This document shows, piece by piece, positions 7,983 to 19,958 of a DNA stretch of 64,000 bases. Numbering within the stretch: the stretch's first letter is position 1; each line of letters opens with the position of its first letter. The stretch is from positions 576,001 through 640,000 of the forward strand of contig CM000430.1 in NCBI GenBank assembly GCA_000165345.1. The letters run 5' to 3'. The notes below the pieces were generated by a model. It was not told the origin of the DNA, ran no database searches, and saw only the letters and a list, made by a program, of their open reading frames with translations. The position numbers were made by a program, and so were the translations under genes.

Positions 7983-8675
7983 TTAAAGTGCCGTGCCTCT
8001 TTCTAGATTTTGTTTAATTTCAGAAGTATATTCATGATAAGCCCTGTCTAATTTCTCATTGTACTTTTTATTCCCCTGATTTATATGATATATATCAGGC
8101 CTAATATAAATTGACTCTGATATGAATCTTTTTCTTTGGTTCTTTATATACTGATTTATTAGCAAATTCTTATCGTTGTCAGAGGGGACATGAGAAGTCC
8201 GAAGAAATTCGGACCTTTCTGGATTAGCTTTCAACTCGCTCATCTGTTGTTCATACTTTTCTCTATCGAAAATAATTTTTTTGTTTGTACTTGAAATAAG
8301 ACCTTTTTTTCTATTTTTTGTTCTAATTCTATTATTTTCCGTCACATTCTCAAATTTCTGTGAATTTCTTTGAATTCTCCAAAGCTCTGTACTTCCGAAA
8401 CGAATATCACACGTATATTCTACTTTCGAATCATTTTTTGCAGTTCTCAGCGCAGAGCTCTCGATAAATTCCTCATTCGAAAACTTTAAAAGTTTATCTA
8501 ATTCCTTCCTCCTTTCGTTTCTAAATATTTCCATATTGAAAATCATTGCAGAATGAACTTTTGTATTCAAACTGTTCAGTGTCTCTATCTTCTCATTATT
8601 TCGTAACTCATCTTCACTGCGGAATAAAAATTCAAGTAAGTGCCTCGAACTATTTGTTTTTTTTTCCGCTATCAT
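7983..8675 (-). CDS. hypothetical basic K/R/E-rich protein
   Basis: 230-aa ORF with a true ATG (ATGATAGCGGAAAAA); charged low-complexity sequence typical of nuclear proteins. No domain recognised. Confidence 0.35.
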   Translation of the reverse strand: MIAEKKTNSSRHLLEFLFRSEDELRNNEKIETLNSLNTKVHSAMIFNMEIFRNERRKELDKLLKFSNEEFIESSALRTAKNDSKVEYTCDIRFGSTELWRIQRNSQKFENVTENNRIRTKNRKKGLISSTNKKIIFDREKYEQQMSELKANPERSEFLRTSHVPSDNDKNLLINQYIKNQRKRFISESIYIRPDIYHINQGNKKYNEKLDRAYHEYTSEIKQNLERGTAL

Positions 8676-8961: not shown

Positions 8962-9006
8962 TCTCGCGCGCAGGAATTCTTTTCAAAAATAAATCATTAT
9001 TTCTTA

Positions 9007-9560
9007 ATGAACGAAAAAGAAATTTCATTTGCAGTTCCAACGGGTAAGTTAATTGCAATGTTTTATTTCAAATATATATTTGAAAATATATAATTTTTTT
9101 AATGATTGATTAATTCTTAATTCATTTATTAGGGACTCGCAAAATTATACAAATTCGAGATTCAAAAACAAATAAATCAACTACTAAAGAAAATTACGTT
9201 TTGAGGTTAAGGGCTTGCTTATCATGTCGAATAATTCTAAGTGATCAACAATTTTACGAAGGTGGGTGTCCAAATTGTACCCATCTTGCAATGGAATTTG
9301 ATCGCCAGAAGGTTAACTCTTGTACTTCAATGTCGTTTAAAGGGTAAGTATGATAACTGTAGAATGTCTGTTATTACAGAATGCTCAATAATGATAAAAC
9401 TAATTTATTGGTTAGAATGATATCTATGCTAAAGCCAAATGAATCATGGGTTGCAAGATACAATAAACTTTTGCCTAACATTGTACCAGGGTGCTATGCA
9501 GTTTCAGTTAGTGGAGATATGGTTTCAGATGACGAAGGCAATTATAATGGAGAATACTAA
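9007..9560 (+). CDS. SPT4: transcription elongation factor SPT4 (3 exons)
   Basis: Manual splice model join(9007..9043,9133..9343,9416..9560). Donors GTAAGT at 9044 and 9344; acceptors tttattAG|G at 9132/9133 and ggttAG|A at 9415/9416. The product has the SPT4 zinc ribbon RACLSCRIILSDQQFYEGGCPNCTH and the conserved CTSMSFKG-MISMLKPNESWVARY block. The longer N-terminal lead (MNEKEISFAVPT...) is uncertain. Absent from the ORF track. Confidence 0.6.
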
Positions 9561-9704
9561 TTAATAAATCTCAACTATTTCATTCTTGTGGAACAAATCG
9601 AGTTTATTGATCCTTTTTATAAATTGCTAAATAATTTAATTTATTCATATTTTCACATTCAATAAAAATATTAGGCCCGGGAATATATATTGTTCCTGTT
9701 TTAG

Positions 9705-10625
9705 CTACTTTATATAAGCCATTTTTTCTTGCAAAACCATCAAGTTCATTCGGTTTAATAAACTTTCTCCAGCTATGTGTCCCCTATGTTCGTGAATTGA
9801 TTCGAAATAGTCAATCGAACTTACTTTTGGTATCATTTCAAAAATTTTCTCTCCAAAGATAATTGAGTATATGTAGCAAAGAACAGTTCGATTAAGTGTT
9901 GTAAACAATACGATTCCATCCTTTTTAAGTAAATTACCTGACCGGGTTACAGAGATAATAAATCTTAGGTATTGGAACTTACTTATTAATTTAACAAAAA
10001 TGCCTGGATTATTTACATGTTCAATAACCTCTGAAGCTACAATAATATCAAATATCTCACTTTTTTGTATGTGTTCGATTCCGCCTTTGAAATATCTCAG
10101 ACTCCTAGGTTTTGGCATACTATTCATGAAATTATTAAGTTCATTTTCATTATTGAATTTAGAGATTTCTTTAAAGCTGGTGGAATTACAAAGTGCATTT
10201 TTGTAAGCTATGTCTATAGACTTATAGGATGCGTCGACTCCAAGTACATCCCCTCCTAATTCTGAGAGTCTTTCCGAAAAAATTCCTGCGCCAGAGCCAA
10301 TATCCAATATCTTTTTGCCACTTAATGGACCATTTAAACTAGCAGACTTATTAGAAATATGTTCAAGCAAGAAACTTGTTCTCAAATGGTTAAATTTTAA
10401 TAGAATACTATCATGAGTTTCTGGGAACCAACTATAACTTGAATACGCATCAAAATTATTTATTTGCTTAGCGTCTATTGTACTAAATTTGTATGATCCA
10501 TAAATCTTGTTTTTCTGCAAAATACGCAAATAGTTTCTAAAATCTATTCCAAAGAATCTGTTATTTTCTAATGTTGAATAACAACTTGAAAATAGAGATT
10601 TTTTGAAAGAAAAATTCCTAAACAT
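9705..10625 (-). CDS. COQ3/UbiG-type SAM-dependent O-methyltransferase (ubiquinone biosynthesis)
   Basis: SAM motif I ILDIGSGAGIFSERL, then GGDVLGVDAS, and post-motif DIIVASEVIEHVNNP. This matches UbiG/COQ3 (LDVGCGGG...DVVTCMEMLEHV). Confidence 0.65.
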   Translation of the reverse strand: MFRNFSFKKSLFSSCYSTLENNRFFGIDFRNYLRILQKNKIYGSYKFSTIDAKQINNFDAYSSYSWFPETHDSILLKFNHLRTSFLLEHISNKSASLNGPLSGKKILDIGSGAGIFSERLSELGGDVLGVDASYKSIDIAYKNALCNSTSFKEISKFNNENELNNFMNSMPKPRSLRYFKGGIEHIQKSEIFDIIVASEVIEHVNNPGIFVKLISKFQYLRFIISVTRSGNLLKKDGIVLFTTLNRTVLCYIYSIIFGEKIFEMIPKVSSIDYFESIHEHRGHIAGESLLNRMNLMVLQEKMAYIK

Positions 10626-10779: not shown

Positions 10780-13700
10780 TCATGATTCGCTAGATTCAGA
10801 CAAAACAGTCCTTACATTGTGTATTTTTTCAACCCACTTATCTCTCATTTCGGAAGAATCTGAATGAAGTATTAGTGACGATGGTATACTGTTCTTTGTG
10901 AAATCTAGCGCAAAACAAGGGATGAATTCATTTTCCTTACTTGTTGCAAGATTGAAGACTCGAATTTGCCTTACAAATCGAATTGGAATAGTTTCACAGT
11001 AGACGGTGTCATTTGGGTGATGACACCAAATAAGCGCCCCATCTGACCTTAAGATAAAGAATCTTTCTTGCCAAAGTCTGCTTTCAGATGATTCATTCTC
11101 ACTGGATGCGATTAAATCGGACATTTGCTTCTTTTTTTGAGAAAGAGGGTTTTCAAGTGCTAAAGGCGGATTTATACAAATGCCTAAAAACCCAAAGTGA
11201 TATGTAGGAATCGAAACAAGTAGGCTTGTTTCTCTGTGTGGCAAGAGCATAAATGAACTCTTGTTTATAATGGCTAGAACAAGAGAATATTGATTTTCCG
11301 AATTAAATAATCCAATAAGATTGTCAGGTTCTGCGACAATCGGAGGGTTCTCGCCGTAAACTGAAATTAAATTTTGGAATGCACTAGCTCTTTCTGGAGA
11401 TAAAACATCTTGTTTTTGATCAGATGCACTATTAGAGGTGTTTTTATTACTCATAAATCCAAGCCAAAATGAATTCAATTTTTCAGGTTTGGTTTCAGTA
11501 GATCTGTTGATAGAAGTTTCTGCAGTTGCTTGAGAAAGAAGAATTTCTGATGGGGTAGTGAGCGTGCGATAAGAGGTAGTGAATTCATCAAGGAACTCAC
11601 TTCTACGGCTAACTTCAAGAAGAATATCATCCCAGCCATCAACCTTAAGCAAAAGAAGCACATTTGAGTTTTTTGGAACGATTATTTCTTCAAAGTCAAC
11701 TATTGGTGCAGCCTGAAGAAGTTTTAATGGAGAATACTGAAACAGTGCAAATCTTTCAGATGTTAAAACAAGAATTTGCCTAAATAAATTTATTGGGCAG
11801 TCAAGAGGGGGTGGAAAGCATGACTTTTCAAGCCCTCTTGCTGTGTAATTAATAACAATATCACTCCAAATTCCCTTTTTCCTTTCTGCAGAAGTTAAAC
11901 CCATTTCATCTAACCGATCCAAATTTTGTTCCATTGCAGCATGATCTCCATTTTTGCCTTTGTATATACTCGAAATGTTTCTGCTACTTGCAAACCCAAG
12001 CATATTCCAAACGGAATGTTCAACAACATCTGAATCTCGGCTTTCAAACTCCGGAGTTGAAAAAACACAAAAATCATCTCTACATGAAGAAACTGGTTCA
12101 TTTCCACTAATCCATGCTGACAACATGACCTTGTTTTCATCTTCTTGAGAATCAAAAGTTTGGCAGCAAAATGATATTTCTTTCAAAGTTTCGGAATGAT
12201 CCGGCTCATAATTACTTAAAGAGTTTGCATTTAATTGCTGAGCTTGAGGTTCCTTGTATTCTGCATCTGAAGGTTCATTATTATCAAATTTATCCAAATC
12301 AAACTTCAAAATTTGTGACTTGGCTTGGATCACGTTTGCAAGTTGGCCTGATGAATTTTTGATATTTAGTAATATGCGTCTTTTTATTAATACTTCTTGT
12401 ATATCTGCATTTACTGCAAAGTGAATTAATGTATTTCTGCGATTATCCTGTGCTTGCACATCACTTCCACATGTTAAAAATAACTCAGTCATAAGCAAAT
12501 TATCTTTAAGTATTGATATTGATATGGGTACGAACCCTGAAAAGCTTTTCCTATTAACAATATTTATTTGTTCTTCGAATGAAAAATGTTCAAGAAGTAG
12601 CTGGAGAGTCTCAATATGTTCTAAATAAGAAAATATATGTAATAAGTTCCAACCATACCCAAAACTAAGCTTCAATAAAGAATCAATGAATTTTTTAATA
12701 CTAAATTCATTCACGCAAGTTTCAGACTCCTCAAATTCAATTTTTTGAGGCTTAGATAATTCAGAATTAATTTCAGATATTATTTCATTGAGATTGGTGA
12801 TTAAAGGCTCAGGATCATTTTTTATTACCGATTTAATTATTAGCTTAAACAAATGTTTGGTTTTCAAATATTCTTCGCATTCTCTATTAATTGTGTGTTG
12901 ACTATTATTAAAATTATCTTCAACAAATTTAATTTGTGAATTGTTTATATCCAAAAATAAAATATCCAATAATATTTGGAACATATTTATGGATGGCTCT
13001 CTGACTGATTTTTCAGAATCAATCAAAATTCTATTCAAGAACTTCTCTATTACAGCATGCTCGGATTCTAAACAATTTAGAATATGATCTCTTTCTTTGC
13101 AAAGCGACTCTGTGTGATTTACTGAATTTAAAGGAAGTTGATTAATTATTAAATCAGAAAAGTGAGTGATTACCCAATTTTGTATTAAATTAATTGTTTT
13201 GTCACTTAGTTCATTTTCCTCCAAATTAGCATTTGGGTTAGGCAAATTAATTACACCGTCGATTAATACCTTGGAGAATGAAATAATTTTTTGACTCAAA
13301 TTATCATCGTAATTCAGATTATTTTTAATTAATTCTTTTAAATGATCTGATAATGATAGAGAATGAATAATCAAATCAGCGGCGTCACTTATTGATTCGG
13401 AATTCATTACTTTATTTGTAGTTTTTATCTGCAAAAGCGCAATCAATTTTAATAATTTTAAGCAATCAGATTTCAATAAATCAAGGTCACTTTCCAAGGA
13501 GTTAATTTTAGAGTCATAGATGCCTTTTTGAGCTTTCTCTTTCTCAGAAAAAAGTTGTTTCGTGCCTTTACTTTCGCTTAACAATAACTGAATTTCACTT
13601 TCCTTTTCAATCTCAAATTCTGAAAATCTTGTTCGTAAAGCAATATAGTCCTCTTCTTTATCCTGTAAATTGCTTTCAAGCTGGGAAATATGAAGTCTCA

Positions 13701-14094
13701 AATCTGCAATTTCTTTATATAAAGACTCTTTATCGGTAAGCAGGTCCTCAACAATACGAGGGGAAGAAGCTTCTATAATATGTTGTTGCTTTAGATTATT
13801 GATACTTTGTTGCTCAAGATAAGAAATCTTTTCATTCAATGTAGAGATCTCGTCATTCAGGGTTTTTATTATATTTTGAAGCTTGGAAATTTCAGTTCCA
13901 TCTTGTTTAATACGTTCCTTGAGAGTATTAATTTCATCATTTTTACCCTTTTCAAGTTCATAAAGTTCATTAAGAGCATCATCCCTCGACTTTACTAGTT
14001 TTTCTAGTCTAGAGATTTTTTGTTCAAGTATTTTGGTTTGTTCAAGGTTTTCTGATCTTGGAAGTTCTACTTCATCCTCGATTCCAATGTCCAT
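10780..14094 (-). CDS. large coiled-coil protein with ankyrin repeats and C-terminal PH domain
   Basis: 1104 aa. N-terminal ~230 aa heptad-rich (LEQKISRLEKLVKSRDDALNELYELEKGKNDEINTLKERIK...). Ankyrin-like block near NLLHIFSYLEHIETLQLLLEH...NTLIHFAVNADIQEVL. C-terminal PH-like RLWQERFFILRSDGALIWCHH...MRDKWVEKIHNV. Confidence 0.55.
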   Translation of the reverse strand: MDIGIEDEVELPRSENLEQTKILEQKISRLEKLVKSRDDALNELYELEKGKNDEINTLKERIKQDGTEISKLQNIIKTLNDEISTLNEKISYLEQQSINNLKQQHIIEASSPRIVEDLLTDKESLYKEIADLRLHISQLESNLQDKEEDYIALRTRFSEFEIEKESEIQLLLSESKGTKQLFSEKEKAQKGIYDSKINSLESDLDLLKSDCLKLLKLIALLQIKTTNKVMNSESISDAADLIIHSLSLSDHLKELIKNNLNYDDNLSQKIISFSKVLIDGVINLPNPNANLEENELSDKTINLIQNWVITHFSDLIINQLPLNSVNHTESLCKERDHILNCLESEHAVIEKFLNRILIDSEKSVREPSINMFQILLDILFLDINNSQIKFVEDNFNNSQHTINRECEEYLKTKHLFKLIIKSVIKNDPEPLITNLNEIISEINSELSKPQKIEFEESETCVNEFSIKKFIDSLLKLSFGYGWNLLHIFSYLEHIETLQLLLEHFSFEEQINIVNRKSFSGFVPISISILKDNLLMTELFLTCGSDVQAQDNRRNTLIHFAVNADIQEVLIKRRILLNIKNSSGQLANVIQAKSQILKFDLDKFDNNEPSDAEYKEPQAQQLNANSLSNYEPDHSETLKEISFCCQTFDSQEDENKVMLSAWISGNEPVSSCRDDFCVFSTPEFESRDSDVVEHSVWNMLGFASSRNISSIYKGKNGDHAAMEQNLDRLDEMGLTSAERKKGIWSDIVINYTARGLEKSCFPPPLDCPINLFRQILVLTSERFALFQYSPLKLLQAAPIVDFEEIIVPKNSNVLLLLKVDGWDDILLEVSRRSEFLDEFTTSYRTLTTPSEILLSQATAETSINRSTETKPEKLNSFWLGFMSNKNTSNSASDQKQDVLSPERASAFQNLISVYGENPPIVAEPDNLIGLFNSENQYSLVLAIINKSSFMLLPHRETSLLVSIPTYHFGFLGICINPPLALENPLSQKKKQMSDLIASSENESSESRLWQERFFILRSDGALIWCHHPNDTVYCETIPIRFVRQIRVFNLATSKENEFIPCFALDFTKNSIPSSLILHSDSSEMRDKWVEKIHNVRTVLSESSES

Positions 14095-19932: not shown

Positions 19933-19958
19933 CCTGAAAGGCGCGCGCGCGCTTCAGG
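19933..19958. repeat. near-perfect 26-bp palindrome centred on (GC)6 in the divergent promoter upstream of PWP2
   Basis: CCTGAAAG-GCGCGCGCGCGC-TTCAGG. An alternating GC run (Z-DNA-prone) in an otherwise ~25% GC spacer between starts 19780(-) and 20294(+). Confidence 0.6.

Follow-up and report, generated by a model that had tools for sequence, protein, structure and literature searches.

The interval 9007–9560 on the + strand of the window (the whole stretch of 64,000 nucleotides that was analysed) contains, with a probability that we put at about 96%, the single-copy gene of Cryptosporidium parvum for the elongation factor SPT4, the small zinc-ribbon subunit of SPT4–SPT5 (DSIF), in three exons that encode 130 amino acids. 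Exon 1 (9007–9043) has 37 nt, i.e., 12 codons from the ATG onwards and one further nucleotide (MNEKEISFAVPT, ending in the first base of Gly13). It is followed by intron 1 (9044–9132; 89 nt, GTAAGT...TTATTAG, 13% G+C) and by exon 2 (9133–9343; 211 nt), which encodes the rest of the N-terminal lead, the C4 zinc ribbon (Cys41, 44, 58, and 61), and the block CTSMSFK(G). Intron 2 (9344–9415; 72 nt, GTAAGT...GGTTAG) contains an internal in-phase AG at 9378–9379. Exon 3 (9416–9560; 145 nt, including the stop codon TAA at 9558–9560) encodes MISMLKPNESWVARYNKLLPNIVPGCYAVSVSGD and an acidic tail. Joining 9007–9043, 9133–9343, and 9416–9560 gives a coding sequence of 393 nt, translated into 130 residues with one terminal stop. 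A preliminary description of this DNA had proposed the two GTAAGT introns as phase-compatible; our coordinates are the same, and the spliced frame stays open to its single stop.

No ORF of at least 60 aa is present in 9007–9560 on either strand (the longest have 59, 59, and 48 aa), and the description was correct in reporting none above 60 aa. The gene is absent from the ORF list because its uninterrupted pieces are only 28, 48, and 59 aa long. If intron 1 is retained, the C. parvum frame stops after 28 codons. The introns are much more A+T-rich than the exons. In C. parvum, 10.8% of the genes contain introns, which average ~99 nt and 22% G+C (Isaza et al. 2015, PMC4637869), and both SPT4 introns fit this published description.

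The assignment to the SPT4 family rests on several comparisons. The spliced product matches the Pfam profile PF06093 (Spt4/RpoE2 zinc finger) over its full length (positions 1–77 of 77 on residues 38–115), with 101.6 bits and an E-value of 2.6e-29, for a gathering score of 25 bits. Exon 2 alone covers positions 1–46 of the profile (56.5 bits) and exon 3 supplies positions 47–77. The spliced product also matches the SPT4 chains of solved structures, with E-values between 4e-19 and 5e-14 (human ~4e-19, Komagataella ~1e-16, yeast Spt4 ~1e-14). This match covers residues 36–118 and is ungapped at the junction of exons 2 and 3, where CTSMSFKG|MISMLKPNESWVARY aligns with CTSSSFDG|IIAMMSPEDSWVSKW. 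The zinc ribbon and the block that the second splice creates from CTSMSFKG and MISMLKPNESWVARY, on which the preliminary description had based its identification, are thus both in the product, and PF06093, the solved chains, and the identical deposited C. parvum Spt4 proteins (see below) agree on SPT4.

The residues central to the family are conserved. The zinc ribbon has the form CxxC-(13)-CxxC, and C41, C44, C58, and C61 align with the four cysteines of human SPT4; they are unchanged in 12 Cryptosporidium sequences and in Eimeria, Plasmodium, and Alphamonas. The segment that contacts the NGN domain of SPT5 (SF.G…P..SWV(A/S)(K/R)…PG.YA..V) aligns without gaps to the SPT4 chains of solved DSIF and elongation complexes. 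Within it, S93-W94-V95-A96 is invariant in the 12 Cryptosporidium sequences, and S93, W94, and A96 remain so in the wider comparison that includes Eimeria, Plasmodium, and Alphamonas. By our count along the yeast sequence, the serine of SWV corresponds to yeast Ser58, which is reported to contact Spt5 (Guo et al. 2008).

The C. parvum protein resembles human SUPT4H1 and yeast Spt4, the small subunit of DSIF (PDB 3h7h, 5oik, 6gmh, 2exu, 7nkx), in its C4 zinc ribbon, its CTSxSF(x)G block, and its (D/K)SWV(S/A)(K/R)(W/Y) strand, and differs from them at both ends. It has 40 residues before the first cysteine, whereas the human and yeast chains, judged from where their alignment starts, have between a few and ~15, and its short C-terminal tail is acidic and rich in tyrosine (SDDEGNYNGEY), unlike theirs. 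It shares the zinc-ribbon core with archaeal Spt4/RpoE'' (NCBIfam NF041664), but this match is weak (24.5 bits over positions 1–57 of 57, below the cut-off of 50 bits), and the protein is of the eukaryotic type. An AlphaFold2 model of the 130-aa product, built from a shallow alignment of 12 Cryptosporidium rows, has a mean pLDDT of 52.3 and a pTM of 0.38, a confidence too low for the model to count as separate evidence on the fold.

The gene model is real, ordinary, and already annotated. An exact look-up found the 130-aa product to be identical to the C. parvum proteins QOY42949.1, WKS76580.1, WRK31072.1, and KAL5370077.1, which were deposited as "Spt4/RpoE2 zinc finger" or "putative transcription factor". 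In the public records, the gene occupies exactly 554 bp of chromosomes that are ~0.99 Mb long. The DNA of 9007–9560 is 100% identical to that of three C. parvum assemblies, in one of which 13 of 12,554 flanking positions differ from the window. The window is therefore C. parvum DNA. Calling the gene unlisted, as had been done, is therefore right for the stop-to-stop ORF list and wrong for the public annotation (QOY42949.1 and others). The IOWA-ATCC assembly (GCA_015245375.1) carries exactly the three-exon model, and the introns of that annotation are stated to be 100% supported by RNA-seq, a blanket statement that is not specific to this gene (Baptista et al. 2022, PMC8744675). Our literature search found no gene-specific statement on C. 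parvum SPT4, and the supplement of Isaza et al. 2015 has no Spt4 entry. An older Iowa II entry from the 2004 era (XP_001388224.1; 124 aa, "partial") is without exon 1 and reads seven codons of the intron (FLIHLLG) in its place; this is its only difference from QOY42949.1. The first exon was added in re-annotations after Iowa II. Current annotations of C. hominis, C. tyzzeri, C. meleagridis, and the chipmunk genotype contain 130-aa orthologues with the same N-terminus, in the same 90% cluster. A search of a large protein collection with the SPT4 product returned only Cryptosporidium proteins, and one locus was recovered per species.

The preliminary description had regarded exon 1 as the weakest part of the gene, a doubt that the comparison across the genus did not bear out: the exon is needed for the start codon and is conserved. 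In C. parvum, the frame of exon 2, followed upstream, closes seven codons from the acceptor, and no ATG in it precedes the zinc ribbon. In the seven species tested, this frame has no upstream ATG and retention of intron 1 truncates the product (7 of 7 in both cases). Exon 1 is required because it holds the only start codon open to the frame of exon 2. The sequences of eight species (C. parvum, C. meleagridis, C. ubiquitum, C. canis, C. felis, C. ryanae, C. muris, and C. serpentis) allow the three-exon layout, and the position of the ATG and that of a phase-1 GTARG donor are unchanged among them. Exon 1 has 37 nt in seven of these and 34 nt in C. canis, exon 2 has exactly 211 nt in all eight, and exon 3 has between 139 and 145 nt; the lengths of the introns range from 49 to 112 nt (intron 1) and from 60 to 84 nt (intron 2).

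The exons have diverged less than the introns. The exons are 95–97% identical to those of C. meleagridis and the introns 82–87% (intron 1, 87%), while the corresponding values for C. ubiquitum are 85–92% and 67–73%. Across species, the variable columns at codon positions 1, 2, and 3 number 18, 10, and 28 in the lead (codons 1–37) and 15, 10, and 53 in the domain. This is the pattern that would be expected of coding sequence under purifying selection, with a weaker constraint in the lead.

A side observation concerns the stretch TTTGCAGTTCCA (Phe-Ala-Val-Pro; 9028–9039, exon 1), in which every base, including the synonymous ones, is invariant in the eight Cryptosporidium species. The invariance extends to the distant C. 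muris, for which overall exon identity is ~70%. Codon bias might explain it, as might a constraint on splicing or on the start of translation.

We considered whether SPT4 might be real and exon 1 nevertheless wrong, the true gene using a different upstream exon or another donor/acceptor pair for intron 1, as do some public models. Annotators have indeed disagreed on the 5' end: the Iowa II model is 5'-partial, and three public models, with 117 aa in C. felis, 123 aa in C. ubiquitum, and 122 aa in one C. canis assembly, skip 8 to 13 residues around the junction of exons 1 and 2. Furthermore, an exon of only 37 nt carries little statistical weight by itself. We nevertheless regard a wrong exon 1 as very unlikely. 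C. felis, C. ubiquitum, and C. canis each also have the canonical layout of 37 (or 34) and 211 nt, which restores AVPTGTRK(I/V)IQ, and the residues skipped by their public models are conserved at the protein level, with synonymous changes in the DNA. C. parvum lacks the acceptor of the C. ubiquitum model (CAAG|TT), its sequence at this place being CAAATT. The SPT4 of Eimeria has a similar lead, with VVPLGT, and the current annotations of C. parvum, C. hominis, C. tyzzeri, C. meleagridis, and the chipmunk genotype all give 130 aa with the N-terminus encoded by exon 1. The deviations in C. felis, C. ubiquitum, and the one C. canis assembly are probably errors of annotation and not biology. As to the details, the donor of the C. 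felis model (L005, 3001–3566) is GTTCCA and falls inside the conserved VPT codons, the C. ubiquitum model lies at L008, 1501–2058, and the deviating C. canis protein is P0008.

A second question concerns the acceptor of intron 2. The preliminary description had pointed to an alternative acceptor at 9380/9381 that is in phase and inserts 12 residues. Such a site exists, one nucleotide upstream of where it had been placed: an exon starting at 9381 breaks the frame, whereas one starting at 9380 keeps it and inserts MLNNDKTNLLVR, which puts the boundary at 9379/9380, after the AG at 9378–9379. Constitutive or alternative use of this acceptor would yield an isoform of 142 aa, in which MLNNDKTNLLVR separates the zinc ribbon from the strand that binds SPT5. 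This product is in phase, has an open frame, and passes the PF06093 threshold with 86.6 bits. However, the insert costs 15 bits relative to the downstream acceptor (101.6 bits) and breaks an otherwise gapless alignment to solved SPT4. The upstream acceptor would leave an intron of 36 nt, when the mean in C. parvum is 84–100 nt (Isaza et al. 2015, PMC4637869), although very short introns do occur, as shown by those of 41 and 45 nt in the adjoining methyltransferase gene. In none of the other seven species tested, including the close relative C. meleagridis, did we find an open model with such an early in-phase acceptor. No deposited protein with the MLNNDKTNLLVR insert was found by the protein collection search or the exact look-up, and the public models of orthologues all lack the 12 residues. 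We thus consider use of the upstream acceptor highly improbable, and the earlier preference for the downstream one was justified.

That the locus is a decaying pseudogene or a functionless chance resemblance has a negligible probability: the lack of a long uninterrupted ORF is the only point in its favour, and against it stand the E-value of 2.6e-29 for PF06093, a frame that is intact in eight species with a codon-position pattern of purifying selection, and the recovery of a single locus per species.

The lead before the zinc ribbon had been described as 40 residues long, which is correct, since the first cysteine is residue 41, and as longer than usual. An exhaustive phmmer scan with the SPT4 product gave 869 relatives. 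The nearest named ones outside Cryptosporidium are those of Eimeria flavescens (KAL8431031.1) and Plasmodium, with 53 and 46 residues before the first cysteine, respectively. The SPT4 proteins of E. flavescens and of Plasmodium falciparum and P. reichenowi thus have long leads, as in Cryptosporidium, at an overall identity of 37–51%. The lead of the Eimeria protein also has, like that of Cryptosporidium, a (V/A)VPxG motif and a basic stretch before LRLRAC, and the motif recurs in one Logan protein (P0016). Outside the VVPxG and basic segments, the lead is poorly conserved between Cryptosporidium and the other apicomplexan SPT4 proteins. Judging from these sequences, a long N-terminal lead is normal for Apicomplexa. 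We had also considered the long lead as a sign of a false exon, and rejected this reading since leads are longer still in the closest relatives outside Cryptosporidium.

The lead is partly encoded by the 37-nt exon 1, and its motif and basic stretch are common to Cryptosporidium, Eimeria, and the Logan protein P0016. One could speculate that the lead (~37 residues, with (F/V)(A/V)VPxG and the basic stretch) is a functional addition to SPT4, e.g., an extra contact with SPT5 or RNA polymerase II, or else that a minor 142-aa isoform is made via 9379/9380. We think it unlikely that either holds.

The three-exon SPT4 model leads to the following scenario, which draws largely on what is known of the family. 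SPT4 is a universal elongation factor of eukaryotes and archaea, and the region of the KPNESWVARY type pairs with the NGN domain of SPT5 in solved complexes. In C. parvum, transcription of the gene on the + strand would start in the short intergenic region that separates it from the divergent SYF2. Removal of the two short GTAAGT...TAG spliceosomal introns would give an mRNA that is translated into the 130-aa protein, with its apicomplexan-type lead of ~37 residues, the C4 zinc ribbon, and a region of beta-strands and helix (…KPNESWVARY…). By analogy with other members of the family, C41, C44, C58, and C61 would bind one zinc ion and the strand around S93-W94-V95 would pair with the NGN domain of SPT5, thus forming DSIF. 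The complex would then ride on RNA polymerase II and promote processive elongation.

The finding has little biological weight, since the factor is universal and both C. parvum and its relatives already have public entries with this model. Its value is methodological. About 11% of the genes in Cryptosporidium contain introns, and short ones among these escape lists of stop-to-stop ORFs; a reading by eye recovered the exact curated model of SPT4. Our comparison further points to probably mis-spliced SPT4 annotations in C. felis, C. ubiquitum, and one assembly of C. canis, as well as to an unspliced methyltransferase model in two C. parvum assemblies (see below).

The order SYF2, SPT4, UbiG-like methyltransferase, and PH-domain protein is kept across Cryptosporidium species. 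SYF2 is divergent from SPT4 and lies upstream of it; it starts at 8675, and the intergenic region shared by the two genes has 331 nt. This region is A+T-rich and contains, ~40 nt upstream of the SPT4 ATG, a G+C-rich core, CTCGCGCGCAGG (8962–8974), which is a candidate promoter element. A CGCGC core is found 39–48 nt upstream of the SPT4 ATG in C. parvum, C. meleagridis, C. ubiquitum, C. canis, and C. felis, and is absent from this position in C. ryanae, C. muris, and C. serpentis. Only two sites in the 64-kb window contain the hexamer GCGCGC, the one upstream of SPT4 and 19941–19950. In view of published studies of upstream motifs in Cryptosporidium, CTCGCGCGCAGG may be an E2F-like promoter element. 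The sequence at 19941–19950 is a short (GC)n run, GCGCGCGCGC.

The gene downstream of SPT4 is convergent with it and encodes a UbiG/COQ3-like methyltransferase. An ORF of 306 aa on the - strand (9705–10625) corresponds to the unspliced reading of this O-methyltransferase. A spliced model (9604–10625, - strand) with two GTAAGT...AG introns, at 9938–9982 (45 nt) and 9784–9824 (41 nt), gives 311 aa. It matches TIGR01983 with 168.8 bits over positions 2–227 of 228, compared with 111.7 bits over positions 2–178 for the raw ORF. The IOWA-ATCC annotation has the 311-aa protein, while GCA_031892065.1 and GCA_048859185.1 carry the unspliced model of 306 aa. The convergent 3' UTRs of SPT4 and the methyltransferase probably overlap, because the stop codons of the two genes are only 44 nt apart.

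In the deposited annotations of C. meleagridis (L009, 2442–3553) and C. canis (L010, 2296–3551), single models of 1250 and 1372 aa, respectively, join the methyltransferase to the PH-domain protein. These fusions are probably annotation artefacts. In C. parvum, the methyltransferase (9604–10625) and the PH-domain protein (10780–14094), both on the - strand, are separate genes.
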